Source of the DNA: a virus
Lineage: Duplodnaviria; Heunggongvirae; Uroviricota; Caudoviricetes
Virus record (IMG/VR): IMGVR_UViG_2711768023_000006
Reading direction: 5' to 3' (one strand)
Length of the DNA: 46,501 nucleotides
Part shown: positions 2,412-24,470 of the stretch, one piece after another
Numbering within the stretch: position 1 is the first letter of the stretch
Layout: every line of letters starts with the position of its first letter
Notes under the pieces: model-generated
What the model saw: only the letters and a program-made list of their open reading frames with translations
The model's database searches: none
What the model was told of the DNA's origin: nothing
Translations under genes and position numbers: made by a program

Positions 2412-2718
2412 TCCCGTTACCTTCCGGGATCAAAATTTGGCTGGTTGCCGGTATCACCGATATGAGAAATGGCTTCAACGGCCTGGCTGCGAAAGTACAG
2501 ACGGCGCTGAAAGACGATCCCATGTCCGGCCATGTTTTCATTTTCCGGGGCCGCAGCGGCAGTCAGGTTAAACTGCTGTGGTCCACCAGTGACGGACTGT
2601 GCCTCCTGACCAAACGGCTGGAGCGTGGGCGCTTCGCCTGGCCGTCAGCCCGTGATGGCAAAGTGTTCCTTACACAGGCGCAGCTGGCGATGCTGCTGGA
2701 AGGTATCGACTGGCGACA
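2408..2718 (+). pseudogene. IS66 tnpB (orf2) N-terminal part, disrupted by prophage insertion
   Basis: MIPLPSGIKIWLVAGITDMRNGFNGLAAKVQ...LLEGIDWR; frame resumes at 41413-41453 (QPKRLLTSLTML*). Confidence 0.75.
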
Positions 2719-2900
2719 TATAACCAGGTGAATCATTTGATACCGACAAGGGGTTTAGTGAAAGGAGGTGAAATCACCTGTAAGATACTGAAATAAAACA
2801 GGTGATGGCTAGATGTGCGGATAAGGTCTATTTGATACCGATTGTGCAATAATTAGTCATTTATTATAAAATCGGCAACTCATTTGATACTGTGGTTTTA
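2719..2900 (+). promoter_or_regulatory. Prophage left end (attL) with three transposase-binding-like repeats
   Basis: TTTGATACCG at 2736-2745 and 2831-2840, variant TTTGATACTG at 2883-2892; same motif inverted three times at the right end. Confidence 0.6.
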
Positions 2901-2964
2901 GTCTTTTAAGGCGTTCCAAACAATGCGAAATACTCGATATAGTGCAAAATGCGGGCTAATGCTA

Positions 2965-3510
2965 TTAACCCGCTTTTGGTTCTACCGCGTTAGATTTGCG
3001 ACTTCTCTCAGTTTCTTCCAAAATCTCTCTGACGCGTTCGTCAGACATACCTTCAAGCTGTAATGCAGCTATTCTTTTCCTTCCTTCTAAGCGGATTAGA
3101 TCTTGATTTTCAGGCTCTAACAACCGAGCTAAGTACTTGGCTCCATTCAGAACCAAATTTTTCGATAGCTGCTCTAAGTCTTTTTCATCAAGTGCGCTGA
3201 TAATCGTCATAATTATCTTCTTGCTTTCATCTTGATTTTCCTTGATCTCACACCGATTCACTTGTGATGCATCACTGAATCCACATAGCCACTCAACACT
3301 TACTCCTTCGATAGACGCAATCTGAAGGGCGACACTTAAGGATGGCTCAGTGCCACGAGACAGATAATTGTTTAGTGTTGAAAATGAAAGCCCCCAATCT
3401 CTTGCTGCAGCTCTGACGCTGCGGGAGCCAATCAGCCTTTTCAGACGCTCAGCAATGCTTTCTTTTCTACCACCAGGAAAAGAAAGAGATGTTGTTGTTT
3501 GCTTGTTCAT
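2965..3510 (-). CDS. Putative prophage repressor (Mu c-like position, HTH protein)
   Basis: 181-aa HTH protein transcribed divergently from ner/A/B at the left end, as for Mu repressor. Confidence 0.6.
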   Translation of the reverse strand: MNKQTTTSLSFPGGRKESIAERLKRLIGSRSVRAAARDWGLSFSTLNNYLSRGTEPSLSVALQIASIEGVSVEWLCGFSDASQVNRCEIKENQDESKKIIMTIISALDEKDLEQLSKNLVLNGAKYLARLLEPENQDLIRLEGRKRIAALQLEGMSDERVREILEETERSRKSNAVEPKAG

Positions 3511-3695
3511 TTTCTTTTCTTCCTATCAATTTGAAATTATTAACTTTTAGTGTTGTCAGCAACCATTGATCCACAATAGACAAAAGAAAGATGTTTTTTT
3601 TGCTTTACATGAAGCAGAAGTGGATCAATACTTATATCAAACTTGATAACTAAGTTTAGTTATCAAATTTCGTAACTTTTTAGGATAGATGAATC
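3511..3695. promoter_or_regulatory. Divergent early promoter/operator region between repressor and ner
   Basis: AT-rich 185 bp with dyad TTGATAACTAAGTTTAGTTATCAA and inverted CCATTGATCCAC/GTGGATCAATA elements. Confidence 0.5.
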
Positions 3696-3926
3696 ATGGC
3701 GAGAAATGAAGTTAAGCCTGATTGGCATCCTCAAAGAATTTTGGGGGAAGTCAGAGCCAGAGAAGGAAGCATGAGGGCGCTGGCCCGTAAAGCTGGCGTG
3801 GGTCAGAACAATCTGTACAACGCGGTATACCGCCATGTTCCCAAGTATGAGGGGATTATCGCGGAATGCCTGGGGGTGCCGCCCGAGGAGATTTGGCCCA
3901 GCCGCTACATTCGTAAGGTCGCGTAA
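3696..3926 (+). CDS. ner: Ner-like DNA-binding regulator
   Basis: 76-aa protein with ...DWHPQRILGEVRAREGSMRALARKAGVG...EEIWPSRY, resembling Mu Ner/Nlp; first gene of early operon. Confidence 0.75.
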   Translation: MARNEVKPDWHPQRILGEVRAREGSMRALARKAGVGQNNLYNAVYRHVPKYEGIIAECLGVPPEEIWPSRYIRKVA

Positions 3927-3928
3927 TT

Positions 3929-6016
3929 ATGTTTGCTTCAGTTAAAGAACTGGTTGGATTACCGGGGATGCCGGGAACGGAGCAAGGCGTTCGCTATTCA
4001 ATCAGGAAGTATGCAACCAGCGAAACCAGCAGACGCCGCAAGAAAGGCGCTAAAGGTTTTGAATACAGCATTGACTGTTTACCTGAAGTGACACAGCAGG
4101 CATTACGCGAACGTTATGCCCTGCAACTGATGACGCAAAAAGCCGATGAATCACCGGCTCCGGTGGTGACAAAGGCCAGACGCTCGTCTGCCGTGGTTGA
4201 TGCGGTGGAGGCATATCGCGGATCACCACAACTGATGGTCGAACGCCTCAATGCCCTGACTGAAAACCAGCGCCAGGTGGCAGACGCACGCATTGCGATC
4301 GTCAGTGAGGTGCTGAAATTCACGCAACAACCCGGTTTCAGCTGCGCTAAAGCTATCCGGTTCCTCGTTAACAGCCTGGCACGATCACAACTGGACGAGC
4401 GCATTGTGGCAATGGTTGAGACGGCGAACGCCAAAAAGGGAAACAGCCGCGCGTTGAGTGAAATCACGCTGAAACGCTGGATTGCGGCCTTTAACAAGGC
4501 ACAGAACGCCGCTGAACGCCTGCTTTTACTGGCACCGGGTAAACGCCAGGAAATAAAAGCCGAAGATATTAACTGGCTGCCCGAATTTCTGGCGCAGTAT
4601 CGCCAGTCAAACGGCCGACCAATGACCGAGGCTTACGAGGATTTTGTTGCTGAATGGCAGCACCGGCACGCTGATGAGCCTTATATGCTCGATATCATGC
4701 CCTCTTATGACACCATTCGCCGCGCAATGAAGAAACTGCCGGAAGTGGTGAAACAAAAAGGCCGGGTAACTGGCAGTGAATACCGTCAGCTTGAGGGATT
4801 CACGCGCCGCGACTGGTCCAGAATGCCGGTGAATTATGTCTGGATTGGTGACGGTCACGGCATGAAGCTGAAATGCGCGCACCCGGTTCACGGGCGGCCA
4901 TTCGCACCGGAAGTGACCTTTGTTATCGACGGTGGCACGCGCTTTGTGGTGGGCTGGAGCCTTGACCTGGCTGAAAATGTTTTCGCCGTAGCCGGTGCCA
5001 TACAGCACGGTATTCGCCATCATGGCAAACCGTTTCTGTATTACTCGGATAATGGCTCCGGGGAAACCGCCGACGTCCTGGATAAGGAGATTGTGGGGAT
5101 ACTGCCACGACTGGGGATTAATCACCCGACAGGGATTGCCGGTAATCCGCAGGGACGGGGCATTATCGAACGGCTTAACCGCACATTACCGATGCGCATA
5201 GCCCGTAAATACCGCACCTATTTCGGGAAAGGAGCAGATCGCGAGACGTTACGTAAAACCAACCGCGATTTACGCTCGGCATTCAGTGCCCTGCAACAGG
5301 GCAAACGGCTGAACGCCCGGCAGCAGTCAGCGATGCGTGATTTACCGTCCTGGTCTGAACTGATTGATGCCATTCGTGACGGTGTTGAGTGGTACAACAA
5401 CCGGCCGCACGATGAATTACCCATGAAGCCGAACGGTAAACATTACAGCCCGGCGGAGTTCAGAAAAAAACGCCTGGCGGAAGAGGACACGGAAATTGAA
5501 TGGCTGTCCGATGTTGAACTGCGGGATATGTTCCGGCCGATGGTGGAGCGCCCTGTAAGACGCTGTGAAATACGCTGGCTGAATAATATTTACTACGCGC
5601 CCGAGCTGCGTGACGAGCATGGCCGTAAGGTACTTATCAGCTATGACATTCATGATGCCGAACGAATTACCGTGCGCCGCCCGGATGGCAGCGTGATTTG
5701 CGAGGCGGTATGGGACGGCAATAAACGCGAAGCCTTCCCTGTCAGCGCGGAATACTACAAACAGCAGCAGCGCCTTAAAGGCATGCGTAAACGCGCAGAG
5801 GAAAAAATCCGTGATGCCGAGGATGAGGTTGTCAACGTGCTGGAGCACAAGCCGCAGGAGCCCTGGCTGGAAAACATATACCGCCCTGTGGGTAATACGG
5901 TGACCGTTCAGCAACCGGTCGCTGACGATGAACCTGATGAAGAATACGAGCGTAATTTCCAGCGGGGATTGCAACTGCTCGAAGCGAAATTAAAAGAAAG
6001 TGATCCGCTGGCCTGA
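3929..6016 (+). CDS. A: Mu-type DDE transposase A
   Basis: 695-aa protein directly after ner, size and position of MuA. Confidence 0.85.
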   Translation: MFASVKELVGLPGMPGTEQGVRYSIRKYATSETSRRRKKGAKGFEYSIDCLPEVTQQALRERYALQLMTQKADESPAPVVTKARRSSAVVDAVEAYRGSPQLMVERLNALTENQRQVADARIAIVSEVLKFTQQPGFSCAKAIRFLVNSLARSQLDERIVAMVETANAKKGNSRALSEITLKRWIAAFNKAQNAAERLLLLAPGKRQEIKAEDINWLPEFLAQYRQSNGRPMTEAYEDFVAEWQHRHADEPYMLDIMPSYDTIRRAMKKLPEVVKQKGRVTGSEYRQLEGFTRRDWSRMPVNYVWIGDGHGMKLKCAHPVHGRPFAPEVTFVIDGGTRFVVGWSLDLAENVFAVAGAIQHGIRHHGKPFLYYSDNGSGETADVLDKEIVGILPRLGINHPTGIAGNPQGRGIIERLNRTLPMRIARKYRTYFGKGADRETLRKTNRDLRSAFSALQQGKRLNARQQSAMRDLPSWSELIDAIRDGVEWYNNRPHDELPMKPNGKHYSPAEFRKKRLAEEDTEIEWLSDVELRDMFRPMVERPVRRCEIRWLNNIYYAPELRDEHGRKVLISYDIHDAERITVRRPDGSVICEAVWDGNKREAFPVSAEYYKQQQRLKGMRKRAEEKIRDAEDEVVNVLEHKPQEPWLENIYRPVGNTVTVQQPVADDEPDEEYERNFQRGLQLLEAKLKESDPLA

Positions 6017-6098
6017 AATAAAAAAATAACCCGAGGGGTGACTCAGGTTATTTGAGGTTTCAGTCTCGGAGAATGCTGTCTCAAGCGAGGTGAATAAT

Positions 6099-7031
6099 AT
6101 GACCGATATTAACGATGTAATCAAGACCATTGATGAACTTATTGATGGCGGCGTACTGACGCAGTATGCCATCGCCAGAGAGGCGGGAATTTCCGACGGC
6201 ACATTATCGGCTTTCCGTAAGGGAAAATATAAAGGCGATAACGCTGCTGTGGCTGCTTCCCTGCGCTCCTGGTATGAGAACTGGAATAAACAAAGCGCAC
6301 TGCCGGAACCGCCGCAGTTTGTGGAAACTCAGACAGTCCAGGAGCTGCGCGCACTGTTTCAGGCGGTTCGCCTGATGGGCTGTATTAACGTTATTGTGGG
6401 CGTACCGGGTGTGGGTAAAACGGCCACTGCCCGTAATTACTGCCAGGAGCAACCAAACACCTGGATGATCACCCTGTCACCCGCGCACTCCAGCGTCACG
6501 GAGTGTCTGCTGGAGCTGGCCGATGCGCTGGGGATTGATTACACCCGCGCGAACAAAGGGGCATTATCCCGCGCCATCCGCCGTCGCCTGATGGGAACGC
6601 GTGGACTGGTGATTGTGGATGAGGCGGATCATCTTGGTATTGACGGTCTGGAGCAACTCCGGGCAATTCAGGACGCCACGGGGATCGGGATGGTGCTTAT
6701 TGGTAACCCGCGCGGATTGTTTAAAGGTGGACGCCGCGCCTTTGATGATTTATCGCGCCTGTTCAGCCGTCTTGCCCGTACAAAACAACTTCGCAAGGCC
6801 AAAAAGGCGGATGTGCTGGCCATTGCCATGGCGTGGGGGATCAGTGGTGAGGCCGAGCTGGCCGTCATGCAGGCTATCGCTGAAAAGCCGGGAGCGTTAC
6901 GCGTTCTGACACATACGCTTAACCAGGCGTGGCTCACCGCCAGCGGTGAAGGCGCGGCGCTGACAGAAAAACATATTAATGCGGCCTTTAAAGAGGTTTA
7001 TACCAACCCTGAATTACTCTCACAGGTGTGA
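6099..7031 (+). CDS. B: Transposition ATPase B (MuB-like AAA+)
   Basis: Walker A GVPGVGKT, Walker B VIVDEADHL; ATG at 6099 with RBS GCGAGG (the ORF-track start at 6090 is GTG). Confidence 0.85.
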   Translation: MTDINDVIKTIDELIDGGVLTQYAIAREAGISDGTLSAFRKGKYKGDNAAVAASLRSWYENWNKQSALPEPPQFVETQTVQELRALFQAVRLMGCINVIVGVPGVGKTATARNYCQEQPNTWMITLSPAHSSVTECLLELADALGIDYTRANKGALSRAIRRRLMGTRGLVIVDEADHLGIDGLEQLRAIQDATGIGMVLIGNPRGLFKGGRRAFDDLSRLFSRLARTKQLRKAKKADVLAIAMAWGISGEAELAVMQAIAEKPGALRVLTHTLNQAWLTASGEGAALTEKHINAAFKEVYTNPELLSQV

Positions 7032-7033
7032 TT

Positions 7034-7255
7034 ATGGCGGTATTTAATATTCCTGATATTTACGGACGCTTTTACCTGGTTAATTTCGATAACGTGAAGG
7101 TGATTTCACTGGCCGAAAATAAAGAATGTGGCGATTTACTTTTTGAATTTAATGACCGCACACGAATGGTGATATCTGCCGGACTTGATCGCGAAGGTGC
7201 GACAGAAGTTTACAGCGGAATATGCCGTTCTGTTGGTGCGAAACAAGTCAGCTAA
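7034..7255 (+). CDS. hypothetical early protein
   Basis: ORF after B; ATG at 7034 preceded by AGGTG. Confidence 0.4.
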   Translation: MAVFNIPDIYGRFYLVNFDNVKVISLAENKECGDLLFEFNDRTRMVISAGLDREGATEVYSGICRSVGAKQVS

Positions 7256-7267
7256 ATGAGGTGTTAT

Positions 7268-7522
7268 ATGAATATGCAATCCTGCGGTAACAAAATGAAT
7301 TTATTCGACTCCCTGAACAGCGCGCGCCGTCTGACCGAACTTGCCGGTGCGGTACTGGAACGCAGTAAGCGCTATCCGCAACGTTTTGCACTGAAAACCA
7401 CGCCGCCGGTAGGCAACGTGCAGGGAACCGGTGAAATTGAAATCACCATACAGACCAACGGCCTGCGCCGCCGTGTGAAGGCCACCCGCATCAGCGGCTG
7501 CACGGTTTACTGGGAGGTGTGA
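7268..7522 (+). CDS. hypothetical early protein
   Basis: ORF in early operon, RBS GAGGTG; start ambiguous (7256/7268/7274). Confidence 0.4.
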   Translation: MNMQSCGNKMNLFDSLNSARRLTELAGAVLERSKRYPQRFALKTTPPVGNVQGTGEIEITIQTNGLRRRVKATRISGCTVYWEV

Positions 7523-7523
7523 G

Positions 7524-7805
7524 GTGAAAAAAAATCTCATTGCATGGGCGTGGTCGAGTGGTCTTATTGAGTTTGGTTACGTCCTGCCGGAAGGTGCATT
7601 GCCGATAGTTGCCGGAAAGCCTGCCACGGTACGGCATGTGATTGAGGTTATGGCGCGTCATGGACGTGATGAACAGGAGCAGTTACTGGTTCCGGGGATA
7701 CCGGAAGCGGTGACGGAGGAAGAAGCCTTTAATGCCATGATTCGGTTCTGCCGTGAGGTTAGACGCCGGGTCAGTTATCCAAACAGAACGAGGACCAGAG
7801 GATGA
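7524..7805 (+). CDS. hypothetical early protein
   Basis: 93-aa ORF, GTG start preceded by GGGAGG, tightly coupled to neighbours. Confidence 0.4.
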   Translation: MKKNLIAWAWSSGLIEFGYVLPEGALPIVAGKPATVRHVIEVMARHGRDEQEQLLVPGIPEAVTEEEAFNAMIRFCREVRRRVSYPNRTRTRG

Positions 7806-8074
7806 GTAAAGTCGTACGCATTATTTTCGAATACAAGGAAGATGTTATCTGCAAAAACTCTGATGGCAGCACGCACAGAGGGGTAAGTCTGGATATACGT
7901 TCAACCGGAATAAAGAAGAAAGATAATGGACCCGCCATGATTTTTGGGGTGGTTATGCTGGCAGAAAGCAGAAACTTCGCAGAGTTTGTGGCAATGAAAG
8001 CCAGTGCATTCATGAAAGACAGAGGCATGGCTTCCGGGGTTATTAACGGTAATGAATTTAATCAACAGGGGTAA
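7802..8074 (+). CDS. hypothetical early protein (paralogue A)
   Basis: MSKVVRIIFEYKEDV...; N-terminus paralogous to next gene. Confidence 0.45.
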   Translation: MSKVVRIIFEYKEDVICKNSDGSTHRGVSLDIRSTGIKKKDNGPAMIFGVVMLAESRNFAEFVAMKASAFMKDRGMASGVINGNEFNQQG

Positions 8075-8078
8075 TTCC

Positions 8079-8372
8079 ATGAGCAAAGTACGCGTTATTT
8101 TTGAATTTAATCATGTTTCGCATGACGAAAAGTTGGCAGGCAATGACTGTGTTGAAGTGCATGAAAAGATTGGAGTGGATGTGAAAACAGAACGTGATAC
8201 GGATAACAGGCCGACGTCACTCTGTGACGTTTATGCAAGTATTCTCCAGTATCACAGTCCTGCAATTATTCAGTTTCTCTCAGCGGAATTTCAGGCATCT
8301 GCACAGTCTTTTGGAGCGGATGCCATCATTAAACGCCACCGCGTGCATAAAGCATCAGGCACACTGCAATAA
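8079..8372 (+). CDS. hypothetical early protein (paralogue B)
   Basis: MSKVRVIFEFNHV...; ATG at 8079 with RBS AGGGG. Confidence 0.45.
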   Translation: MSKVRVIFEFNHVSHDEKLAGNDCVEVHEKIGVDVKTERDTDNRPTSLCDVYASILQYHSPAIIQFLSAEFQASAQSFGADAIIKRHRVHKASGTLQ

Positions 8373-8383
8373 GGAAAAACAAA

Positions 8384-8914
8384 ATGGCTAAACGCGTTAC
8401 AAAATTAAAGGCCGCAGCCGAGGCGGCACCGCAGACCCGGGAAGAAGTCAGCCGTGATATCCGCACCCTGGGAGATATTCAGCGAGAGGCGCTGCGCCTG
8501 GAAACGGCGATGAATGACGAAGTGGCAGAAATCACCGCCCGTTATACGCCGCAGATTGAAAATCTTAAAAAGCAAATCAAAGTGCTTTTTAAAGGGATTC
8601 AGGACTGGTGCAAAACCAACCGTGATGAGCTGACGAACGGCGGCAAAACCAAAACAGCCAATCTGACCACCGGAACGGTGTCATGGCGGCTGGGAACGCC
8701 ATCATGCAGCGTCAGCCGTGATGTGGAAGGTGTGATTGAAATGCTGCGCCGTATGGGGCTTGAGCGTTTCATCCGCACGAAAGAGGAAGTGAACAAGGAA
8801 GCCGTCCTGGCGGAGCCGGATGCTGTGAAAGGCATTGCCGGTATCAAGGTGAATAAAGGCGCTGAAAGTTTTTATGTCGAGCCTTTTGAACAGGACGCCG
8901 GACTGAATAAATAA
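8384..8914 (+). CDS. gam: Gam-like host-nuclease inhibitor (DNA end-binding)
   Basis: 176 aa; ...IRTLGDIQREALRLETAMNDEVAEITARY...CKTNRDELTNGGKTKTANLTTGTVSWR...FIRTKEEVNKEA closely resembles Mu Gam. Confidence 0.85.
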   Translation: MAKRVTKLKAAAEAAPQTREEVSRDIRTLGDIQREALRLETAMNDEVAEITARYTPQIENLKKQIKVLFKGIQDWCKTNRDELTNGGKTKTANLTTGTVSWRLGTPSCSVSRDVEGVIEMLRRMGLERFIRTKEEVNKEAVLAEPDAVKGIAGIKVNKGAESFYVEPFEQDAGLNK

Positions 8915-9059
8915 CACCGCATTAATCAATTAAATATCACTTCATTTTAATTATGGCGCTCGCGTCAGGGGACTGCTTGCGCCTGAAAACAGAAAATAAG
9001 GGTTAAGAAATATGAAATACGTTTATATCGTCATTAATAATGTGGTGGGGAAATAAATC

Positions 9060-9593
9060 ATGATTGATGCAAAAGTGCTTGAAGGGGTTAAAAACTGGCT
9101 GTGTATTTATGGCCGCCTGACCTGCGGTGTACTGGCTGAAAAAATGAATATGCCGCCATCCTCCATGGTTTATTTTCTGCGTGATGCGGTTGATGCAGGC
9201 GTGCTGACGGAATGTAACGGTTTTTATGATATTCCGCGTCCCCGCCCGGTGCAGCCGGTTCGTCGCAAATGCAGCCAGGAATCTGCGGCTGATGATGTTC
9301 AGTGGTGCGGCTTCAGAAAATCCCTGCCATGGATTGAGGGGCATGATATTCCGTCGATGGCGTGGGAATTTGCTCAGGGCGTTCTGACCTGTGAAACCGT
9401 TTATGTGGTGGCTGAAGTTGATGAGCAGGCCATGAAAGAAGGCGTGCCCCAGTTTGTGATGGCGTATATCGACATACGCCTGGGCGTCATTATCTGCGGT
9501 TTAAGCGGCTGGAATATCACTGAACATGTTCTGCGCTACCTGATTGTTGACCGGACAGCAGCGCCTGCCGGGATATCTGCGGAGGTGGCGTAA
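9060..9593 (+). CDS. hypothetical protein
   Basis: 177-aa ORF in semi-essential early region. Confidence 0.4.
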   Translation: MIDAKVLEGVKNWLCIYGRLTCGVLAEKMNMPPSSMVYFLRDAVDAGVLTECNGFYDIPRPRPVQPVRRKCSQESAADDVQWCGFRKSLPWIEGHDIPSMAWEFAQGVLTCETVYVVAEVDEQAMKEGVPQFVMAYIDIRLGVIICGLSGWNITEHVLRYLIVDRTAAPAGISAEVA

Positions 9594-10108
9594 TGTTCTT
9601 TAAAACATCAAACCCTTCCGCGCTGGCTGCGTGGCAAAAATACCAGCAGGACTGCCAGAAAGTTAAGGATGAGGCAAAACGCCTTGAGGCCGTGCTGAAT
9701 GTTGCGTGCCGGTCGGTATTTGTATCCGGTATCAGTGGATTTTACTTTAAGGGACTGCGTTTTACGGAGGACAAATATCCTTTTCATCGCGACTTATGGC
9801 GAAAACCGACTGCGTCGAATGGCTGGAGCTGCACACCGCGCACATCACGTATCCCTAAAACCCTGCGTGTTGCCTCTGATGAACTGAACAGTCTGTGGCG
9901 TGAATATTCGCCCGTCACGTATGCCAGAACCGATGCGCTGTTGTTCTGGTTGGGTATTGATTTCTCGGCAATCCTGTTTGGCCCTGTGAAGTGGTTCTGC
10001 GTTGACGATGTGATTTACCTTCAGTGCGGCGTAAAACCCGCAAAACAGAAAATGACCGAAATACTGTCTGATGAGTTTTATGCTGCTGAAAAGCGAGTCA
10101 GGGGGTGA
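9593..10108 (+). CDS. hypothetical protein
   Basis: 171-aa ORF, start overlaps previous stop (TAATG). Confidence 0.4.
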   Translation: MFFKTSNPSALAAWQKYQQDCQKVKDEAKRLEAVLNVACRSVFVSGISGFYFKGLRFTEDKYPFHRDLWRKPTASNGWSCTPRTSRIPKTLRVASDELNSLWREYSPVTYARTDALLFWLGIDFSAILFGPVKWFCVDDVIYLQCGVKPAKQKMTEILSDEFYAAEKRVRG

Positions 10109-10111
10109 TGC

Positions 10112-10663
10112 ATGATGAAATTACAACCCATGGGACTAAAAGGTCGCGCCCCCGCTCATGTCCGTCCGTGGACACCTGAAGAAGATGCGCTGCTGATTGC
10201 GCTTTATTCATCCACCCCGGTTAAGGATATTGCTGCCAGAATAAAAAGAACTGTCTGGGCTGTATATAACCGGACTGGTGTATTGCGCAGTTCATACCCG
10301 GAGTTACTGAAATATAAACACCCAAGATTTACACCTGATGAAGATAAGTTTATTCGAAAAAATGCCAGAACAATGACCTGCCAGCAAATGGGAGAATATC
10401 TCGGACGTAATAAAGATTCTGTCAGATGTCGGGCAGGAATGATTGGTGCTGGATTAACAAAGTGCGGAGAGTTACGCCCCGGCACGCGCATATCTGATGA
10501 TGATGTACGTCTTATACGTGAGCTGCGTGATTCCGATTACCCACGCCGTCTGTCATTCCGGGAAATTGGCGAAAAGTTTGGAATATCTGAACATTCTGCT
10601 CACGCAGTTTATTACCGTCGCCGGACTGCCGAGGACGCTGTATTACGGGAGTTAACGCCATGA
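10112..10663 (+). CDS. hypothetical DNA-binding protein with three HTH/Myb-like repeats
   Basis: Repeats WTPEEDALLIALY...RTVWAVYNR / FTPDEDKFIRKNA...SVRCR / ISDDDVRLIRELRD...FGISEHSAHAVYYRR. Confidence 0.45.
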   Translation: MMKLQPMGLKGRAPAHVRPWTPEEDALLIALYSSTPVKDIAARIKRTVWAVYNRTGVLRSSYPELLKYKHPRFTPDEDKFIRKNARTMTCQQMGEYLGRNKDSVRCRAGMIGAGLTKCGELRPGTRISDDDVRLIRELRDSDYPRRLSFREIGEKFGISEHSAHAVYYRRRTAEDAVLRELTP

Positions 10664-10992
10664 TAACGACCTTATTTGTTGAATCAGATGAACCTCTTGT
10701 GTGTGCCGCCGGAATGCCGCTCTGTGGCGGAACGCTGACCGGCGTTTATTTCGGGGATTTGCGCGGTTATCCCTGGCATTCACTGGATGACGCATTTCCG
10801 CCTGATATGGAGGCTGTCGTGCTGATTGTTCAGTATGGTGACCAACAGGAACTGCGCATCGGCCATATGGGGTATGAAGGCTTTTTTATTGATGAAGAAA
10901 CCGGAGCCTGCCTTGAAGATGAGGACGGACAGGTGACGCACTGGTGCCATCTTTCGGCCTTGCCGGAATTACAGGGGATACATAATGGATGA
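10660..10992 (+). CDS. hypothetical protein
   Basis: 110-aa acidic ORF, overlapping coupling with neighbours. Confidence 0.4.
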   Translation: MITTLFVESDEPLVCAAGMPLCGGTLTGVYFGDLRGYPWHSLDDAFPPDMEAVVLIVQYGDQQELRIGHMGYEGFFIDEETGACLEDEDGQVTHWCHLSALPELQGIHNG

Positions 10993-11128
10993 GCAAATTG
11001 TTGAATGTCCCACCTGTGGAAATGAGGACCCGGAGTATCTGAAAGAGTGCCCACATTGTGGTGAGATAAAATGTAACCACTGCGATATGGGCGACGACAC
11101 TGCATGTATAAATTGTGAGGATGAATAA
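10985..11128 (+). CDS. small zinc-ribbon protein (47 aa, four CxxC motifs)
   Basis: MDEQIVECPTCGNEDPEYLKECPHCGEIKCNHCDMGDDTACINCEDE*; below the ORF-track size cut-off, fills gap between flanking genes. Confidence 0.5.
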   Translation: MDEQIVECPTCGNEDPEYLKECPHCGEIKCNHCDMGDDTACINCEDE

Positions 11129-11129
11129 T

Positions 11130-11417
11130 ATGGAAAAAGAAATCAAATTTGCGCCTAAATCTATCGACGAAGAACTGGCTAAAATCGGCATGCTTGAACG
11201 TATGCGGGACATTATCGAATATGCGATAAAAGAAAATCTTGCAGCCAGAGAAGCCCTTTTGATAATGGAGCGGGAGATTAACCTGATTAAGGATGCTGTA
11301 TCTCTGGATAATAAAATAGCCCGCGAGGAATACGTTCGCCGTAGGCTCGGTGTTGATGGTTCAGCAATTCTTACATCTGAACATTATGCAAAAATTTTTA
11401 ATCTTTTTCAGCGGTAA
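11130..11417 (+). CDS. hypothetical protein
   Basis: ATG at 11130 with RBS GAGGA; coiled-coil-like sequence. Confidence 0.45.
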   Translation: MEKEIKFAPKSIDEELAKIGMLERMRDIIEYAIKENLAAREALLIMEREINLIKDAVSLDNKIAREEYVRRRLGVDGSAILTSEHYAKIFNLFQR

Positions 11418-11637
11418 TCCCCATACAGGCCCGGAGATTGTCGAAATGCCAGTCGGTATTAATATATGAGCCATCCTGGATATCTTCTGCATTTTCCGGG
11501 GTAGAGTTTTTTTGAGCGAGATTGATAATATGTATTGCCTCCTCACGGGAAATCAGCCCCTTATCGAACAGGGTTACCATAAGATTTCCAGCCATTGTGA
11601 ATGCGGCAACATCAAGTGCATTTTTTATATCTGACAT
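11398..11637 (-). CDS. hypothetical protein encoded antisense to the early operon
   Basis: 79-aa ORF with RBS AAGGA 6 nt upstream of ATG on minus strand; no plus-strand ORF covers 11418-11707. Confidence 0.45.
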   Translation of the reverse strand: MSDIKNALDVAAFTMAGNLMVTLFDKGLISREEAIHIINLAQKNSTPENAEDIQDGSYINTDWHFDNLRACMGITAEKD

Positions 11638-11665
11638 AGATTTTTCCTTTTATGTTAATTGACAT

Positions 11666-11693
11666 GGCGGTGCGGTAACACCGCCCATTTTTT
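11666..11693 (+). terminator. Rho-independent terminator-like hairpin
   Basis: GGCGGTG-CGGTAA-CACCGCC followed by ATTTTTTAT. Confidence 0.5.
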
Positions 11694-11707
11694 ATGGAGC
11701 CACGATA

Positions 11708-12281
11708 ATGAATCGCGCTTCCCTGATTACCTTAATACATGTCGCAAAACGCGATCTACAGCTTGACCATGATACCTATACATCCGCGCTGCTGGCAGCC
11801 ACCGGCAAATCCAGTTGCCGTGATATGTCACCCGGTGAGTTATCCCGCGTGCTGGATGTTTTCAAAAAACGCGGTTTTAAAGTGCGTCAGAAGCCGGTTA
11901 ACCGGGCCTTAAAACCGGGTACGGTGACCGCCAAAATTCGCGCCATCTGGAAAGTGATGCACCGGCAGGGATTTATCTCTGATGGCGGGGAAACGGCCCT
12001 TAACCGCTGGGTGAAATCGCAGACGGCCGCGCNNNNNNNNNNNNNNNNNNNNNNNNNNNNNNNNNNNNNNNNNNNNNNNNNNNNNNNNNNNNNNNNNNNN
12101 NNNNNNNNNNNNNNNNNNNNNNNNNNNNNNNNNNNNNNNNCCCGCGCTGGCCTCTGATGTGCTGGAGCGTCTCAAACGCTGGCACCGCCGCAAAATGCTG
12201 GCAGCCCTGGATATGTCGGAACGTGCAGTGATGAGTTATGAGCGTGTTTGCAGGCTGTATGAAAAATCATTCCCCCGTTAA
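11708..12281 (+). CDS. gemA: GemA/gp16-like protein (interrupted by 108-N assembly gap)
   Basis: MNRASLITLIHVAKRDLQLD... N-terminus; C-terminal frame after the gap ends at 12279-12281; true length unknown. Confidence 0.55.
12033..12140. other. Assembly gap (108 N)
   Basis: Run of n characters inside gemA. Confidence 0.99.
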
Positions 12282-12285
12282 CCCC

Positions 12286-12317
12286 AAATCCCGCCACAGC
12301 GCGGGATTTTTATTTTA
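12286..12317 (+). terminator. Rho-independent terminator after gemA
   Basis: Perfect 9-bp stem AAATCCCGC/GCGGGATTT, 6-nt loop, then TTATTTT. Confidence 0.7.
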
Positions 12318-12351
12318 AACTTGCCCTGTGTAATGATGACCGGAGGCGGGT

Positions 12352-12774
12352 ATGGCTGAAACACAGATGAGCATGTTTGGTGACAGCGAACAGCTGCACG
12401 CGCTGATTGACCGTCTGGATGATATTCCTGATGATGAGCTGAAAAAGAACTGGCCCGGCACGCTGCGGGACCTGGTTGATGTGATCAGTGCTGAACTGCA
12501 CCGTCAGGGGATTGAACCTGCTCAGGCGGGAATGCTTGCCCGTAAGGTTGCAGCCGCACAGGCCGGGTACATGGGCGGGCGTGGTTATTATCTCCCGGTC
12601 GGTGAATCCCTTTTCACCGAACTGCGCAATAATGAAATTTTTTCCCGCTGGAGCCAGGGCGAAAAAATTGAAACCCTGCGCCGCCACTACCAGATGTCAG
12701 AGACGCAGATTTACTCCGTTATCCGCAACCAGCGTCGCCTGCATCAGGAACGCACGCAGCCACGGCTTTTCTGA
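12352..12774 (+). CDS. Mor/C-family late transcription activator
   Basis: 140 aa; C-terminal HTH ...ETLRRHYQMSETQIYSVIRNQRR resembles Mu Mor/C; sits between gemA and lysis genes. Confidence 0.7.
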   Translation: MAETQMSMFGDSEQLHALIDRLDDIPDDELKKNWPGTLRDLVDVISAELHRQGIEPAQAGMLARKVAAAQAGYMGGRGYYLPVGESLFTELRNNEIFSRWSQGEKIETLRRHYQMSETQIYSVIRNQRRLHQERTQPRLF

Positions 12775-12845
12775 TATTCCGCAAATCCTGCCCCCTTTTC
12801 CTCACGGTTACGCTGACTCAGAGAACACCATGAGACAGCGTAACA

Positions 12846-13346
12846 ATGCCAAAACTCCCCGCACCCCTGCGTAAAAAGCTGATTGCCCTTGTTCTGGCCG
12901 GAGCCGGGACGTTCACCATTGCCACGCACTACACCGGCTACTGGGAAGGGAAAGAAAACACCACGTACATTGATCCCACCGGCACCCCCACCATCTGTTA
13001 CGGCCATACCGGCCCGGATGTGAAACCGGGGATGACAAAAACTGATGAAGAGTGTCTGGAGCTGCTGGAAAAGGACATGAAATGGGCCTTTGCGGCTATC
13101 GATCGTCATGTTCAGGTGCCGCTTACCCGTGGTCAGACGGTGGCGCTGGCCTCCTGGATTTTCTGGGCCGGTGAAACGAACTTTCGCAACTCCACGCTCC
13201 TGCGCCTTATCAATGCCGGGCAGATGCCCGCGTCCTGTAAGCAGTATATCCGCTGGATTTATTCAAAGGGGGTAAAACTCCCCGGTCTTGAGGCCCGCCG
13301 TTCGGCGGATGAATGGTTATGTCGTTACGATTTGCCGAAAGTCTGA
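12846..13346 (+). CDS. lys: Endolysin, T4-lysozyme-like (GH24), probable SAR type
   Basis: N-terminal hydrophobic stretch LIALVLAGAGTFTIA then catalytic E-8aa-D-5aa-T motif (YWEGKENTTYIDPTGTPT). Confidence 0.8.
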   Translation: MPKLPAPLRKKLIALVLAGAGTFTIATHYTGYWEGKENTTYIDPTGTPTICYGHTGPDVKPGMTKTDEECLELLEKDMKWAFAAIDRHVQVPLTRGQTVALASWIFWAGETNFRNSTLLRLINAGQMPASCKQYIRWIYSKGVKLPGLEARRSADEWLCRYDLPKV

Positions 13347-13458
13347 ACCGCTTCTGGCGACCGCTCATGATTGCGCTGCTGTGTGCCGTTGTGCTGCTGC
13401 GGGGTGTGCTGTGTCTGCGGTGAACAATCCCTTACCGGCCCTGATTGCCGGAGGCTGT

Positions 13459-13809
13459 ATGGCGGCGCTGGGGGTGATGAGCGTGCTGGCTGCCGTGGTA
13501 TGGGGAATGCACCAGAAGACGCAGCGCCTTGAGGACAATAATCATGTGCTTGTGCGTGAACGGGACGAAGCCCGTCTGGTGCTGGCAAACCAGCAACGCA
13601 CCCTGCAACTCATTTCACAAATCAGCAAGGCGGCCACGAATGAAAAACAGCAGAACATGCAGCACAGCGAGGAACAGCAGAGCATTGTCCGCCGGTCACT
13701 GGCAACGGTGCCTGCTGCCGCTGTGCCTGTGCCTGATGATGTGGCTGACCGGGTGCGGCGGGCCGTCTGTGAAATACGTGCCGGTGAAGCCGGTGCCGAT
13801 CCCCGCTGA
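13459..13809 (+). CDS. Putative i-spanin (Rz-like); start uncertain
   Basis: N-terminal TM AALGVMSVLAAVVWGM then coiled-coil/charged periplasmic region; ORF-track start 13288 overlaps endolysin. Confidence 0.5.
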   Translation: MAALGVMSVLAAVVWGMHQKTQRLEDNNHVLVRERDEARLVLANQQRTLQLISQISKAATNEKQQNMQHSEEQQSIVRRSLATVPAAAVPVPDDVADRVRRAVCEIRAGEAGADPR

Positions 13810-14011
13810 ATGGCTGGCTGACTGCCTGGTCCCTCCCGCGCCGCAGCCGTTCACGTTTGGTGCATCGGTCACTTACAACCTGCAACTGCTGGCGGTGATT
13901 AAAAACTGCAACGTGGACAAGGCCAGCATCCGCCGTCTGGAGACACAGCGACAGCATGAATTTACTGATATGGCCGGAACGACTGCTGTTCCGGCAGGAA
14001 AGACGAAGTAA
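13640..14011 (+). CDS. Putative o-spanin lipoprotein (Rz1-like), overlapping i-spanin in another frame; start uncertain
   Basis: Lipobox LTGC (Cys codon 13751-13753) followed by proline-rich stretch PVKPVPIPAEW...PPAPQPF. Confidence 0.45.
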   Translation: MKNSRTCSTARNSRALSAGHWQRCLLPLCLCLMMWLTGCGGPSVKYVPVKPVPIPAEWLADCLVPPAPQPFTFGASVTYNLQLLAVIKNCNVDKASIRRLETQRQHEFTDMAGTTAVPAGKTK

Positions 14012-14021
14012 GGAAAAAGGT

Positions 14022-14249
14022 ATGGATGATTCAGATTGTGCTCAGGCAGTCATGGAGCGTGCAACAGAACGCGCCCTTTGTGACCGGCTGACACGTAAGC
14101 GCCGGGTGGCGGAGACACCGGGCAGGCGTGTATGCGCGGACTGCGGGGGTGACATTCCGGCTGCCCGTCTGGTTGCCGTGCCGGATGCCATCCGTTGTGT
14201 GAACTGCCAGAACATCATGGAGGCCGGTCATGTGGGTCAGCATCGTTAA
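14022..14249 (+). CDS. TraR/DksA-family C4 zinc-finger protein
   Basis: CADCGGDIPAARL...RCVNCQ motif; RBS AAGGAAAAAGG before ATG at 14022. Confidence 0.65.
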   Translation: MDDSDCAQAVMERATERALCDRLTRKRRVAETPGRRVCADCGGDIPAARLVAVPDAIRCVNCQNIMEAGHVGQHR

Positions 14250-14541
14250 AGATTATGTCGTGCCGATCCTGTCGGCAACGGCCACAGCCGGGGGGATCTT
14301 CATGGCGCTGATGCGCAAAACCTTTGTCCCCCGCGAGGCCTTTGAAAAACTCTCCGACCGGGTTGAGCGGGTGGAGAGCCGGATTTCCGGCCTGCCCACG
14401 CAGCAGGAGGTGAACAGACTCAATATCGAAATCACCACCCTGCGCGGTGAGCTTAAGGCCACCAATGCCACCCTGAAATCCGTCTCCCATCAGAACGAAC
14501 TGCTGCTGGAGCAGGCTGTAAGGAAAAAACACAATGAGTGA
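14230..14541 (+). CDS. Small membrane protein, possibly lysis-associated (holin/releasin-like)
   Basis: N-terminal TM VVPILSATATAGGIFMALM followed by coiled-coil region. Confidence 0.35.
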   Translation: MWVSIVKDYVVPILSATATAGGIFMALMRKTFVPREAFEKLSDRVERVESRISGLPTQQEVNRLNIEITTLRGELKATNATLKSVSHQNELLLEQAVRKKHNE

Positions 14542-14824
14542 TTTCATTACTGAAGATCAGCGTCTTGTCATTCTGCGGTCGCTGGCGGATTACAACGGCG
14601 AACTGGGCGAATCCGTGCTTCAGGACTGCCTGGATGATTACGGTCACCGCGTGTCCCGCGACACCGTTCATACCCACATTGCCTGGCTTGCCGAGCAGGG
14701 ACTGGTGCGTAAGCGCACGCTTGTTAACGGTTATTTCATCGCTGAACTGACCGGCCGGGGTCAGGATGTGGCGGAAGGCCGCGCCACCGTTCCGGGTGTG
14801 AAGAAACCACGCGCAAGGGGGTAA
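14534..14824 (+). CDS. hypothetical protein (Mu gp26 position)
   Basis: 96-aa ORF upstream of terminase module. Confidence 0.4.
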   Translation: MSDFITEDQRLVILRSLADYNGELGESVLQDCLDDYGHRVSRDTVHTHIAWLAEQGLVRKRTLVNGYFIAELTGRGQDVAEGRATVPGVKKPRARG

Positions 14825-14826
14825 CG

Positions 14827-15408
14827 ATGGATAAGCCAGCGCGTGGCCGTGTACGCAAGGTGGATTTGCTCCCCGACAGCATCCGTAAGCCGCTGCTGGA
14901 AATGCTGCGTGAAAAACGTCTGACGCAGGTCCAGATCCGCGAGGAAATCAACCGTCTGATCCGTGAAGCAGGTCTGCCGGAAGAGCAGCAGCTCTCACCG
15001 GCGGCCATCAGCCGGGAAGCCTCCCGTAATGAGCTGATTGCCCGTAATCTGCGTGATTTACGCGAGCAGACAAAAGCCATGATGGCCGAACTGGGGGATA
15101 AGCCGACCGGTGAAACCACGGCACTGATTCTGGAGATGTCCCGTGCCCTGATGTACCGCCGTCTGCGTGCCGCCACCGAATCCCTGAACAGCGACAGCGA
15201 TGTGGATATGCGCCTTATTAAGGACATCCTCCTGTCGGCACAGCGTGCAGAAAGTGCCGCCGAGCGCAGCATTAAGCGTGAAAAAGAAATCCGGGCCGCA
15301 TTTGCTGAAGAGATGGCGAATGCGGTCACCGATGAGTTGCGCGGCGTGGATGGCATGAGCGAGCAGATCGAATTCCGTATCAGGCAGATGCTGCTGGGTA
15401 AGGCGTAG
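14827..15408 (+). CDS. Putative terminase small subunit (Mu gp27-like)
   Basis: 193-aa protein immediately upstream of large terminase. Confidence 0.5.
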   Translation: MDKPARGRVRKVDLLPDSIRKPLLEMLREKRLTQVQIREEINRLIREAGLPEEQQLSPAAISREASRNELIARNLRDLREQTKAMMAELGDKPTGETTALILEMSRALMYRRLRAATESLNSDSDVDMRLIKDILLSAQRAESAAERSIKREKEIRAAFAEEMANAVTDELRGVDGMSEQIEFRIRQMLLGKA

Positions 15409-15418
15409 GAGGTGAATC

Positions 15419-15667
15419 ATGGCAACAGATAACCGCTCACTGATGAGCAGTGCCCATCAGAAAGCATTCAGTCTTGCAACACAGTTACCTCCTGAAACCA
15501 TAAAGGTATGTCGTGAGTTGACTGAACTCAGCATTGCCGGGGAAATATCCCTGGAACAACTGCATTCGCTGCTGGCAGAGGCTGCCACTGATGAGTTGAG
15601 CGGCGTGGACGTGATGACTGAAGAGCTTGAGTCCCGAATCAAAAGCATTCTGACAGGTAAAGCATGA
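15419..15667 (+). CDS. hypothetical protein sharing C-terminal motif with upstream gp27-like protein
   Basis: C-terminus DELSGVDVMTEELESRIKSILTGKA versus DELRGVDGMSEQIEFRIRQMLLGKA in 14827-15408. Confidence 0.45.
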   Translation: MATDNRSLMSSAHQKAFSLATQLPPETIKVCRELTELSIAGEISLEQLHSLLAEAATDELSGVDVMTEELESRIKSILTGKA

Positions 15668-17331
15668 TGAACAAAGCCAGAGAAACGTCGCCTTCACTGA
15701 TGCAAATGACGCCTCCCCGCAAAATTGATCTGTCAGGTGAAAAAGCCCTGCTGGGCGTGGATGTGCCGGACAGCCTTGATTTGCCCGGTGATATGCCGGT
15801 GTTTCTGGATTATCAGGCCCGCTGGTTTGCAGATGAAAGTCAGGTCTGCATCGCGGAGAAATCCCGCCGCACCGGTCTTACCTGGGCGGAAGCCGGGCGT
15901 AACGTCATTACTGCTGCAAAACCGAAGCGTCGTGGTGGCCGCAATGTGTTTTATGTGGGATCAAAGCAGGAGATGGCGCTGGAATATATTTCTGCCTGCG
16001 CGCTGTTCTCCCGTGCCTTTAACCAGCTGGCAGATGCTGATGTGTATGAGCAGACATTCTGGGATCGGGATAAAAAAGAAGAAATTTTGACCTACATGAT
16101 CCGCTTTCCGAACAGTGGATTCAAAATTCAGGCATTGTCTTCCCGTCCGTCAAACCTGCGCGGCCTTCAGGGGGATGTGGTGATTGATGAAGCCGCGTTC
16201 CACGAGTCACTGGATGAGCTTCTCAAGGCGGCAATGGCGCTCACTATGTGGGGCGCGCGCGTGCGTATTATCTCCACGCATAACGGCGTCGATAATCTGT
16301 TTAATCAGTACATTCAGGAAGCCCGCGAGGGGCGCAAGGATTACAGCGTCCACCGCATAACCCTGGATGATGCCATTGCGGACGGGCTGTACCGTCGTAT
16401 CTGTTACGTCACCGATCAGGAATGGTCACCGGAAAGCGAGCAGAAATGGCGTGATGATCTCTACAAAAACGCCCCGACCCGTGAGGATGCCGACGAGGAA
16501 TACGGCTGTATCCCGAAAAAATCCGGCGGTGCCTATATCCCCCACGCGCTTATTGAAATGGCGATGATCCGCGACATCCCGATTCTGACGTTTGAAGCCC
16601 CGGACAACTTCATCAGCCGTGCCGCATGGCTGCGTGAATCGGAAGTTTTAACCTGGTGTGAAGAACATTTAAAACCGCTTTTAGAGAAATTAAATCCCCG
16701 TTCCCGCTTCAGCTTCGGGGAAGACTTTGCCCGCACCGGTGACCTGTCCTGCTTTGTGCTGCTGGAAATCACCGAATCCCTGGCAAAGCGCGAGGTGTTT
16801 CGCGTGGAGCTGCGCAACCTGCCGTATGCCCAGCAGGAACAGGTGATGATGTACATCCTGACCCGCGTTCCGGCGCTGGTCGGTGCGGCGTTCGACGCCA
16901 CCGGTAACGGCGGCTATCTGGCAGAGGCCGCACTGCTGGCCTTTGGCCCGGACATCATCGACTGCGTGATGTTGTCGCCGAAGTGGTACGGCGAGTGGAT
17001 GCCAAAACTGAAAGCCGAGTTTGAAGATCAGAATATCCTCGTCGCCCGCCATCAGACCACGCTTGATGATTTGCGCCATGTGAAGGTAGTGAATGGTATC
17101 CCGCAAATCGACAAGGGGCGCACGAAGGACCAGAACGCAACGGCTGCGAACGCCCGCCGCCATGGTGATTTTGCCGTGGCGCTCTGTATGGCAAACCGGG
17201 CGTCATACATGGAGGGCTTCATCCTGGATGAATCAGCCTGTCAGGCGCTACAGGAGCGGTCGCGGGCAATGGAGGGCGGTTATCGTGATGACGATGAGGC
17301 ATATCATGAATTTGATCGGGGGGGCTGGTAG
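15664..17331 (+). CDS. Terminase large subunit (Mu gp28-like)
   Basis: 555-aa protein at the position of Mu gp28, followed by portal gene. Confidence 0.8.
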   Translation: MMNKARETSPSLMQMTPPRKIDLSGEKALLGVDVPDSLDLPGDMPVFLDYQARWFADESQVCIAEKSRRTGLTWAEAGRNVITAAKPKRRGGRNVFYVGSKQEMALEYISACALFSRAFNQLADADVYEQTFWDRDKKEEILTYMIRFPNSGFKIQALSSRPSNLRGLQGDVVIDEAAFHESLDELLKAAMALTMWGARVRIISTHNGVDNLFNQYIQEAREGRKDYSVHRITLDDAIADGLYRRICYVTDQEWSPESEQKWRDDLYKNAPTREDADEEYGCIPKKSGGAYIPHALIEMAMIRDIPILTFEAPDNFISRAAWLRESEVLTWCEEHLKPLLEKLNPRSRFSFGEDFARTGDLSCFVLLEITESLAKREVFRVELRNLPYAQQEQVMMYILTRVPALVGAAFDATGNGGYLAEAALLAFGPDIIDCVMLSPKWYGEWMPKLKAEFEDQNILVARHQTTLDDLRHVKVVNGIPQIDKGRTKDQNATAANARRHGDFAVALCMANRASYMEGFILDESACQALQERSRAMEGGYRDDDEAYHEFDRGGW

Positions 17332-20235: not shown

Positions 20236-20356
20236 CGGTCAGTGGCGGGGGTCGAACCCGCATACATGATCCACCCGGAGGCAGGCACCGACTTTACCAG
20301 TTAAGCGTACACTGACCGCCTGTTTATTTTATATTCATCCTTTATGCGGAGGCAAT

Positions 20357-20830
20357 ATGTCATCCATTGATGCAGCTGTCGTTGTTGACGTTACGCGTCT
20401 CCAGCGAGTGTTTGCCCGGCTTCAGTTTGTGGGCGGCGGAAAAGACCTGGCCCGCAGTGTGGCGGCGAGTCTTCTGTCATCGTCAGAAATGGCGTTTGAG
20501 CAGGAAAAAGAGCCGGATGGTGAACGCTGGCATGACTGGTCAGATCCTTACCGTGAGTGGCGTACCCGTAAGGGATACACGCCCGGCAAAATCCTGACGC
20601 TGAACGGCGATCTGGCCCGCCGCCTGACCACGGATTATGGCGATACCTGGGCGCTGATTGGATCAAATGAACCTTATGCAGCCATTCATCAGTGGGGTGG
20701 CCTGCCTGGTATGCCACCGGGACCGGCGGCCATTGGCGCACGTCCGTATATGGGCTTTGATCAGGTGGCAGAACAGGAGATCATGGACGAAATCAGAAAA
20801 CGCTTTAAAAAGGCCACAGAAACGCCGTAA
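20357..20830 (+). CDS. G: Virion morphogenesis protein (Mu G-like)
   Basis: 157 aa, position and size of Mu gpG. Confidence 0.7.
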   Translation: MSSIDAAVVVDVTRLQRVFARLQFVGGGKDLARSVAASLLSSSEMAFEQEKEPDGERWHDWSDPYREWRTRKGYTPGKILTLNGDLARRLTTDYGDTWALIGSNEPYAAIHQWGGLPGMPPGPAAIGARPYMGFDQVAEQEIMDEIRKRFKKATETP

Positions 20831-24467: not shown

Positions 24468-24470
24468 CAG

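Follow-up and report, generated by a model that had tools for sequence, protein, structure and literature searches.

Putative transposase-binding sites in the phage Mu layout, TA termini and a 4-bp target-site duplication at the ends of an Sp18-type Escherichia coli prophage

The window analysed here, the whole 46,501-nucleotide (nt) stretch of IMG/VR record IMGVR_UViG_2711768023_000006, is Escherichia coli DNA in which an IS66-family tnpB gene is interrupted by a Mu-like transposable prophage (Table 1). The left flank up to 2718 is a 99.5% match to IS66 tnpA/tnpB, and the intact IS66 copy reads …gactggcGACAgcc…, with GACA once only. The host element is divided between window positions 2075-2718 and 41413-43187; its tnpB open reading frame (2408-2731) extends into the phage end, and beyond 41413 tnpB continues and is followed by tnpC. 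One relative (working label L005) is the converse case, with two IS66-family elements inserted within the prophage. Gene order is known from a relative that has the window's ends, is 99.8-100% identical to the window over both terminal segments and was annotated by the Prokaryotic Genome Annotation Pipeline (PGAP): repressor, Ner-like helix-turn-helix protein, transposase, AAA+ ATPase, Gam, Mor, lysis, head and tail genes, an invertible tail-fibre segment with its recombinase, Com and Mom. Compared with the Mu-like insert in Shiga toxin (Stx) phages and with copies in O157:H7 and other Shiga toxin-producing E. coli (STEC), the window shows 93-95% nucleotide identity with gene order kept; this Sp18-type comparison took in O157:H7 and STEC copies and left out strain Sakai. 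Sp18 itself is described as efficiently packaged, non-circularising and located at strain-specific sites (PMC2669165, PMC7430833, PMC10132054).

The prophage reads 5'-TATAACC… from 2719 and …GCGCTATA-3' to 41412. In six further E. coli genomes, which carry the phage in sgrR, bcsA, a diguanylate cyclase gene, elyC, xdhA and nadB, similarity to the window runs exactly from the equivalent of 2719 to the equivalent of 41412, and the termini of the E. coli insertions are 5'-TATAACCAGG… and …CGCCGCGCTATA-3'. The boundaries were placed using these seven independent insertions (the window and the six genomes) together with three empty-site reconstructions. An earlier note on this DNA, made from the letters alone, had named junction mapping as a check that could have put the true ends elsewhere, and the seven insertions return the same two positions.

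Table 1. Features of the window. Site and core positions are counted inward from the nearer prophage tip; Mu positions were recomputed from the Mu sequence (CGAAAR cores).
Feature	Coordinates	Strand	Position from tip (nt)	Mu core (nt)	Remarks
Complete Mu-like (Sp18-type) transposable prophage	2719..41412	+			38,694 bp; same ends in seven host contexts; Mu-like gene content
Left copy of 4-bp target-site duplication, GACA	2715..2718				Intact IS66 tnpB (…ggcGACAgcc…) has a single GACA; junctions
Left terminus, 5'-TATAA	2719..2723	+			TA tip (most relatives TGTAA); end comparison
L1, putative transposase-binding site	2724..2745	+	site 6-27, core 18-27	22-27	Core TTTGATACCG at 2736-2745; conserved in relatives
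L2, putative transposase-binding site	2819..2840	+	site 101-122, core 113-122	127-132	Core at 2831-2840; weakest, leave-one-out rank 18 of 92,960
L3, putative transposase-binding site	2871..2892	+	site 153-174, core 165-174	167-172	Core TTTGATACTG at 2883-2892
Repressor, not of the Mu c type	2965..3510	-			Weak XRE/CI-type helix-turn-helix match
DDE transposase, 695 amino acids	3929..6016	+			N-terminal domain like MuA I-alpha; rve-like core D308/D374/E414; Mu-transpos_C
MuB-like AAA+ target-DNA activator	6090..7031	+			Pfam AAA_22 and Phage-MuB_C; ~67% nucleotide identity to Mu B
Interior exact 10-mer copy	22552..22561	+			Coding, major head protein; not considered an att site
R3, putative transposase-binding site	41329..41350	-	site 63-84, core 75-84	56-61, opposite strand	Core TTTGATACTA; orientation of R1/R2; conserved in vB_YpM_5 and Kp4866-3
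R2, putative transposase-binding site	41364..41385	-	site 28-49, core 40-49	44-49	Motif match, conservation
R1, putative transposase-binding site	41386..41407	-	site 6-27, core 18-27	22-27	Motif match, conservation
Right terminus, …CTATA-3'	41408..41412	+			TA tip, invariant in the family (16/16 IMG/VR right ends, all E. coli copies examined)
Right copy of 4-bp target-site duplication, GACA	41413..41416				Intact IS66 tnpB; junctions

All seven E. coli insertions are flanked by a 4-bp direct repeat (gaca, aaca, gacg, tacg, taga, tgtg and cacg), and the three left/right pairs recovered from IMG/VR, each from one genome or sample, likewise show 4 bp (agtc, agaa, aaca). When the prophage and exactly one 4-bp copy were deleted from nadB and bcsA, the reconstructed empty sites matched the uninterrupted genes of thousands of genomes at 196/196 nt, and the intact IS66 gives a 4-bp duplication at tnpB in the same way. 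As a control, authentic Mu in E. coli W, put through the same procedure, yielded 5 bp (gccgc). Other placements of the boundary that would yield 5 or 6 bp were tried, and none fits any of the seven insertions; the 5-bp duplication of Mu is not found in the window's phage family, which makes 4 bp. This 4-bp rather than 5-bp duplication, overlooked by the earlier note, is the most unusual feature of the element. The flanks also carry a target bias: among 43 distinct ends (from the window, L001-L005, L012, L013 and L025-L056), G is raised at position -6 (26/43) and C at -5 (22/43), and C is nearly missing at -3 (1/43), a target preference close to GC-N4-GC, on both sides and symmetric about the 4-bp duplication. 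Mu prefers N-Y-(G/C)-R-N within its 5-bp duplication, so that its bias lies inside the duplication, whereas that of the window's phage family lies outside.

The two tips of the prophage differ in how far they vary. The right tip is …CTATA in 16/16 IMG/VR copies, in every E. coli copy and in Klebsiella phage Kp4866-3, and …CTTTA in Yersinia phage vB_YpM_5 and the vB_YpM_5-like A21 prophage, relatives that have TA at both ends. The left tip is polymorphic, being TATAACC in the window, five other E. coli genomes and 5/16 IMG/VR copies, and TGTAACC in the O157 copy and 11/16 IMG/VR copies. The earlier note had set the TA ends of this DNA against the TG…CA of Mu; the contrast stands for the window copy, which reads 5'-TA…TA-3' where Mu has 5'-TG…CA-3', and for the fixed right end, but the left TA is a minority polymorphism in a family whose copies mostly begin TGTAACC. 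Copies with the TATA left end occupy 11 insertion sites, no two of which have the same flank (the window, L001, L003, L004, L005, L012, L031, L036, L041, L042 and L049), and all six of those in which both ends were examined have their own 4-bp duplication. Such copies therefore still transpose, and the variant is mobile and no dead end. Judged by the ends it leaves, the transposase is one that joins transferred strands ending CA-3' or TA-3', with C or T tolerated at the penultimate 3' position.

Just inside these tips lie six copies of a short repeat. The 10-mer TTTGATACCG occurs exactly at 2736 and 2831 on the plus strand and at 41364 and 41386 on the minus strand, the copy at 2883 (TTTGATACTG) has 1 mismatch to it, and the minus-strand copy at 41330 (TTTGATACTA) has 2 mismatches, with the 8-mer TTTGATAC exact; the earlier note had listed these same three direct copies on the left and three inverted copies on the right, and its positions are correct. 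Allowing up to one mismatch, TTTGATACCG has 11 matches against 2.8 expected, a number that none of 100 shuffles reached, and TTTGATAC has 7 copies against about 1.05 expected on both strands of the 46.5-kb window. Six of the 7 lie no more than 175 nt from a prophage end, every one of these six facing inward. The six sites share a consensus of about 22 bp, …GC.A.T.ATTTGATACYG, and when 22-bp weight matrices were made from five of them at a time, the site left out ranked between 4th and 18th of 92,960 positions in every one of these leave-one-out scans.

A scatter of copies through the interior, the other outcome that the earlier note held would speak against it, was not found: there is no comparable interior density, and the sole exact interior copy, at 22552, is the in-frame TTT GAT ACC GAA (F-D-T-E) of the major head gene, unchanged in two close relatives. 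Because this copy is in frame and kept in relatives, coding constraint explains it, and we rejected it as a central site despite its location near mid-genome. The best interior match to the 22-bp matrix, 22540-22561 on the plus strand, encodes …NFFDTEHP… of the major head protein in frame and scores 16.5, where the six end sites reach 19.8-27.5; its resemblance to them is most likely a coincidence.

We then aligned the ends of the window with those of the CI5 copy, the O157 copy, vB_YpM_5 (74% identical to the window in early-region DNA, with a transposase 58-92% identical depending on the region) and Kp4866-3. Across these relatives R1, R2 and R3 have an unchanged TTGATAC core, with the spacers between the cores largely rewritten, and L1 is conserved; L2 and L3 are present at shifted positions. 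Kp4866-3 has the TTGATAC core together with the …CTATA right end, as in the window. The O157 Sp18-type copy agrees with the window in its right end, its six sites and its 4-bp duplication, and has the left end TGTAACC versus the window's TATAACC. A different core, TTTGCATAG, stands at nt 19-27 in SuMu and Kp4852-3, which have TG tips, and FDAARGOS_1303, an E. coli prophage related to Kp4852-3, carries TTTCTGCATAG at its left end and TTTCGCACCG at its right end in the same register. The end sequences of SuMu, Kp4852-3 and Kp4866-3 were read, and in all three the last base of the outer core is nt 27, like that of the window. The comparison with the ends of other Mu-like phages, a kind of check that the earlier note had suggested, returns a shared register, with other cores in Mu, SuMu, Kp4852-3 and FDAARGOS_1303. 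Two of the public records extend beyond the true ends: Kp4866-3 (L008) carries 2 and 3 surplus flank bases, and in the circular record of vB_YpM_5 (L006) about 80 bp of apparent host DNA (4653-4732) links the right end to the left end.

The transposase encoded beside the left end is 23% identical to MuA over its full length. Among Pfam models, HTH_Tnp_Mu_1 and Mu-transpos_C score above their curated cut-offs and the rve models score below theirs, whereas DDE_2 and the I-gamma model HTH_Tnp_Mu_2, which match MuA itself at 2e-136 and 3e-48, find no match in the 695-amino-acid protein; it falls outside the MuA family as strictly defined by those two models. In a comparison with solved structures, the match for residues 2-62 is the enhancer-binding I-alpha domain of MuA (1TNS, E = 7e-6), and the core is nearest, by sequence, to retroviral integrases. 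D308, D374 and E414 are conserved in the lineage as aligned, and both aspartates align with MuA D269 and D336. Identity to the window's transposase is 57% for Kp4866-3, 43% for SuMu, 41.5% for Kp4852-3 and about 30% for D3112-type proteins, and on this comparison the enzyme is placed in the SuMu/D3112-type lineage, not with MuA proper. In phages with the same motif as the window, identity over the putative end-binding region (about residues 71-290) is 97%, 74% and 55%; it is 35-39% in phages with another motif and 14% to MuA. The catalytic core is more conserved than this region in every comparison, a pattern that fits changed specificity and is no proof of it. A divergent transposase specificity had been suggested in the earlier note; the distance to MuA, the missing I-gamma and DDE_2 matches and the use of TTTGCATAG in the same register by transposases 41-43% identical to this one all favour that suggestion.

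The early region also shows exchange near the N terminus of the transposase. In the O157 copy (L013 2527-2740, compared with window 3929-4140) the first ~70 amino acids, a domain resembling the enhancer-binding I-alpha domain of MuA, are 61% identical to the window and the remainder 96-99%, and the O157 repressor gene encodes a protein of another accession and is 531 bp long, versus 546 bp in the window; the pattern is like the swap of immunity region and enhancer-binding domain between Mu and D108. The window's repressor matches HTH_3 slightly under the Pfam cut-off. We looked for the N-terminal DNA-binding domain of the transposase in this repressor, as in Mu, and found no detectable similarity. 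The Mu repressor shares its N-terminal domain with the transposase and the window's repressor does not, so that Mu-style competition of repressor and transposase for operator and enhancer through homologous domains may not hold in this phage.

Taken together, position, orientation and conservation indicate that the six repeats are very probably the end-recognition (att) sites of a Mu-type transposable phage, putatively bound by its transposase. The reading of the repeats as L1-L3 and R1-R3, first made in the earlier note, draws on their inward orientation, the Mu register of L1, R1 and R2, the long spacer behind L1 and the cores conserved in vB_YpM_5 and Kp4866-3. By analogy with MuA, subunits of the transposase would bind L1-L3 and R1-R3 through a two-part DNA-binding region, and the bound subunits would pair both ends in a transpososome. 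Each end would be nicked after its 3'-terminal A, leaving …TATA-3' on both transferred strands in the window copy, and the 3'-OH groups would be joined to target DNA that the MuB-like ATPase has captured, at phosphates spaced by 4 nt. Membership of the SuMu/D3112-type transposase lineage would account for a recognition sequence that differs from that of Mu while the layout of the sites is kept.

The 4-bp stagger also appears beyond the Sp18-type copies. The A21 prophage, with TA-TA tips and a transposase 56% identical to the window's, has the duplication TACT (4 bp), and FDAARGOS_1303, with TG-CA ends, has GATG (4 bp). Among Kp4852-type prophages in IMG/VR, a degenerate pattern returned left ends only and a right-end pattern returned one unpaired contig. 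As 4 bp is found in lineages with TA-TA and with TG-CA ends, the stagger appears to be a trait of this transposase branch, independent of the TA tips. On balance, and by a modest step only, we favour the wider proposal of a widespread enterobacterial Mu-like lineage (Sp18-, vB_YpM_5- and Kp4852-type) with a non-MuA transposase, a 4-bp stagger, GC-N4-GC-biased targets and C or T before the 3' A.

Several observations weigh against the account given so far. L2 matches weakly outside its core. R3 is direct (nt 63-84) in the window's phage versus inverted (about nt 56-77) in Mu, and no inverted copy lies within 260 nt of the right end, so that the right-end architecture differs; the earlier note's reading of the ends on the Mu pattern is qualified to this extent. 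The ~71-290 region of the transposase has no Pfam I-gamma match and 14% identity to MuA, and the assignment of the repeats to the transposase is drawn from position, symmetry and conservation. The 4 bp of FDAARGOS_1303 holds only if the terminal T/A is the phage's, which seven IMG/VR left ends support, and comes from a single insertion.

The repeats could instead be bound by another factor than the transposase, for instance a nucleoid protein of the host, the packaging (pac) machinery, Ner or the repressor, in which case their location at the ends would be incidental to transposition. What speaks for such a binder is that transposase binding is deduced here from sequence, that the motif is AT-rich, like many nucleoid-protein sites, and that Mu has its pac site within the left end, in the interval from L1 to L2. 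We nevertheless consider it unlikely, given the inverted symmetry of the sites across the two ends, a register equal to that of the MuA sites in Mu (the outer site ending at nt 27 from either tip and R2 lying another 22 bp inward) and a motif that changes along with the transposase lineage; a pac site would moreover be expected at one end only, and an operator would be expected between the repressor and ner (about 3511-3695), where the matrix scan gave no strong match. That the cluster is a mere chance product of the prophage ends, which are indeed AT-rich and non-coding, is effectively refuted by the shuffles, by the leave-one-out ranks, by the 6/7 8-mer copies that sit at the ends and point inward, and by cores kept across relatives whose spacers have diverged.

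Two further alternatives concern the duplication and the left tip. Duplications are known from final products, and a 4-bp stagger could be mimicked by one of 5 bp if repair systematically removed a base, or by a misplacement of the boundaries. This is highly unlikely: shifting the boundaries by 1-2 nt to either side gives no consistent direct repeat at any of the seven sites, removal of the prophage with one 4-bp copy restores nadB and bcsA at every position and IS66 tnpB as well, the flank preference (G at -6 and C at -5 on both sides) is centred on 4 bp, and Mu gives its 5 bp by the same procedure. The left TA could also be a disabling G-to-A mutation at position 2 that has left the window copy immobile and decaying, as the TG left end of most family members (11/16 IMG/VR copies and the O157 copy) and the importance of the terminal CA in Mu might suggest. 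Here too the evidence runs the other way, and we find the idea scarcely credible. The TATA-left copies, with their 11 sites and, in 6/6 two-end cases, their own duplications, integrated after gaining the A. No copy has any right end other than TA, which means that a TA-3' end is already among the substrates of the enzyme. In addition, vB_YpM_5 and A21 have TA at both ends, vB_YpM_5 being a plaque-forming phage (PMC10434027).

Other features of the window are of separate interest. At 37004-39058 on the plus strand lies a gene for a 684-amino-acid protein, whose orthologue in a relative is annotated DUF6645, followed by DUF1378 and DUF826 genes (small open reading frames to about 39700); these genes sit between the invertase gene and com/mom, a place that is empty in Mu, and the region 37004 to ~39700 looks like accessory (moron) cargo with no assigned function. 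Between the head-morphogenesis and virion-morphogenesis genes, 20234-20320 on the minus strand can form a tRNA-like cloverleaf whose T-loop reads GGTTCGA and whose closing stem, at about 11 bp, is unusually long; relatives have a 'tRNA-OTHER' call by PGAP at the equivalent position, the fold z-score in the window is just -1.4, and ARAGORN and Rfam made no calls on the window, the cloverleaf included. The RefSeq name for the phage Mom enzyme is 'tRNA(Gly)-dependent adenine aminoacyltransferase', and a phage-borne tRNA-like RNA might be relevant to it. The window also contains a run of 108 N at 12033-12140 (bases masked or left unresolved), in the early/middle region of the prophage, and a lone N at 1158 and at 43858.

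Mu serves as the reference for DDE transposition, with a terminal CA and a 5-bp stagger that are usually taken as fixed. The common E. coli Sp18-type family, found in many pathogenic strains, keeps the Mu end layout and differs in its stagger, its recognition sequence and the penultimate base of its termini. Two features commonly held fixed for Mu-like phages are so revised, in an E. coli prophage that is very common and open to experiment. If the present account is true, the polymorphism between TG and TA left ends at ~95% identity would be a natural experiment on the supposedly invariant CA, with TG-left and TA-left forms that are closely related and directly comparable in E. coli. Exact ends, the site consensus and the 4-bp/GC-N4-GC rule allow prophages to be delimited precisely in annotation, where the host genes that they disrupt at present appear under PGAP as fragments without explanation. 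Mini-elements with a specificity orthogonal to that of mini-Mu could also be built on the defined ends.

Among published accounts, the literature, in which subscription journals were thinly covered so that novelty is unproven, held no account of Sp18-type phages that describes their ends, att sites or duplication length, and within the same thin coverage no 4-bp duplication was reported for a Mu-like phage. For TA termini in Mu-like phages the only relevant paper was that on transposable prophages of Leptospira (Olo Ndela et al., 2021, PMC8705779), the papers on SuMu, Mannheimia and Yersinia phages giving neither ends nor duplications. The Leptospira prophages have TA-TA ends, which were called unusual, and whether such phages exist in other bacteria was left to investigate; the window's family answers that question positively and, if the account is true, would represent the first TA-ended transposable phages recognised outside Leptospira. 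TA at both tips is common to the Leptospira prophages and the window's phage, whereas the duplication, given in PMC8705779 as 6 bp for Leptospira and for B3 and 5 bp for Mu, is 4 bp here. The Leptospira prophages form their own group, with B3 as the closest known transposable phage, and are set beside the window's phage by description only; their TA ends define a whole clade, while the left TA/TG of the window's phage varies within one ~95%-identity family.

Set against Mu, the window's phage has much in common: three sites of about 22 bp per end, inverted between the ends, with R2 directly adjacent to R1; outermost sites that end at nt 27 at both tips and an R2 that ends at nt 49, to the base; a long spacer of about 70-90 bp between L1 and L2/L3 (Mu sites 111-132 and 151-172); a 3'-terminal A; genes for a transposase and a MuB-like ATPase beside the left end; and many insertion sites with a short duplication. 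The two differ in the core, which is TTTGATACYG in the window's phage versus CGAAAR in Mu, so that the MuA consensus ending CGAAA(A/G) is not matched; in L2, shifted by about 10 nt (nt 101-122 versus 111-132); in the termini, TA…TA in the window copy versus TG…CA; and in the duplication, 4 bp versus 5. No new mechanism is called for: this phage has Mu-type transposition ends, which are of a known kind, and what makes them a variant is the TA tips, the 4-bp stagger, the direct R3 and a different sequence of the sites.

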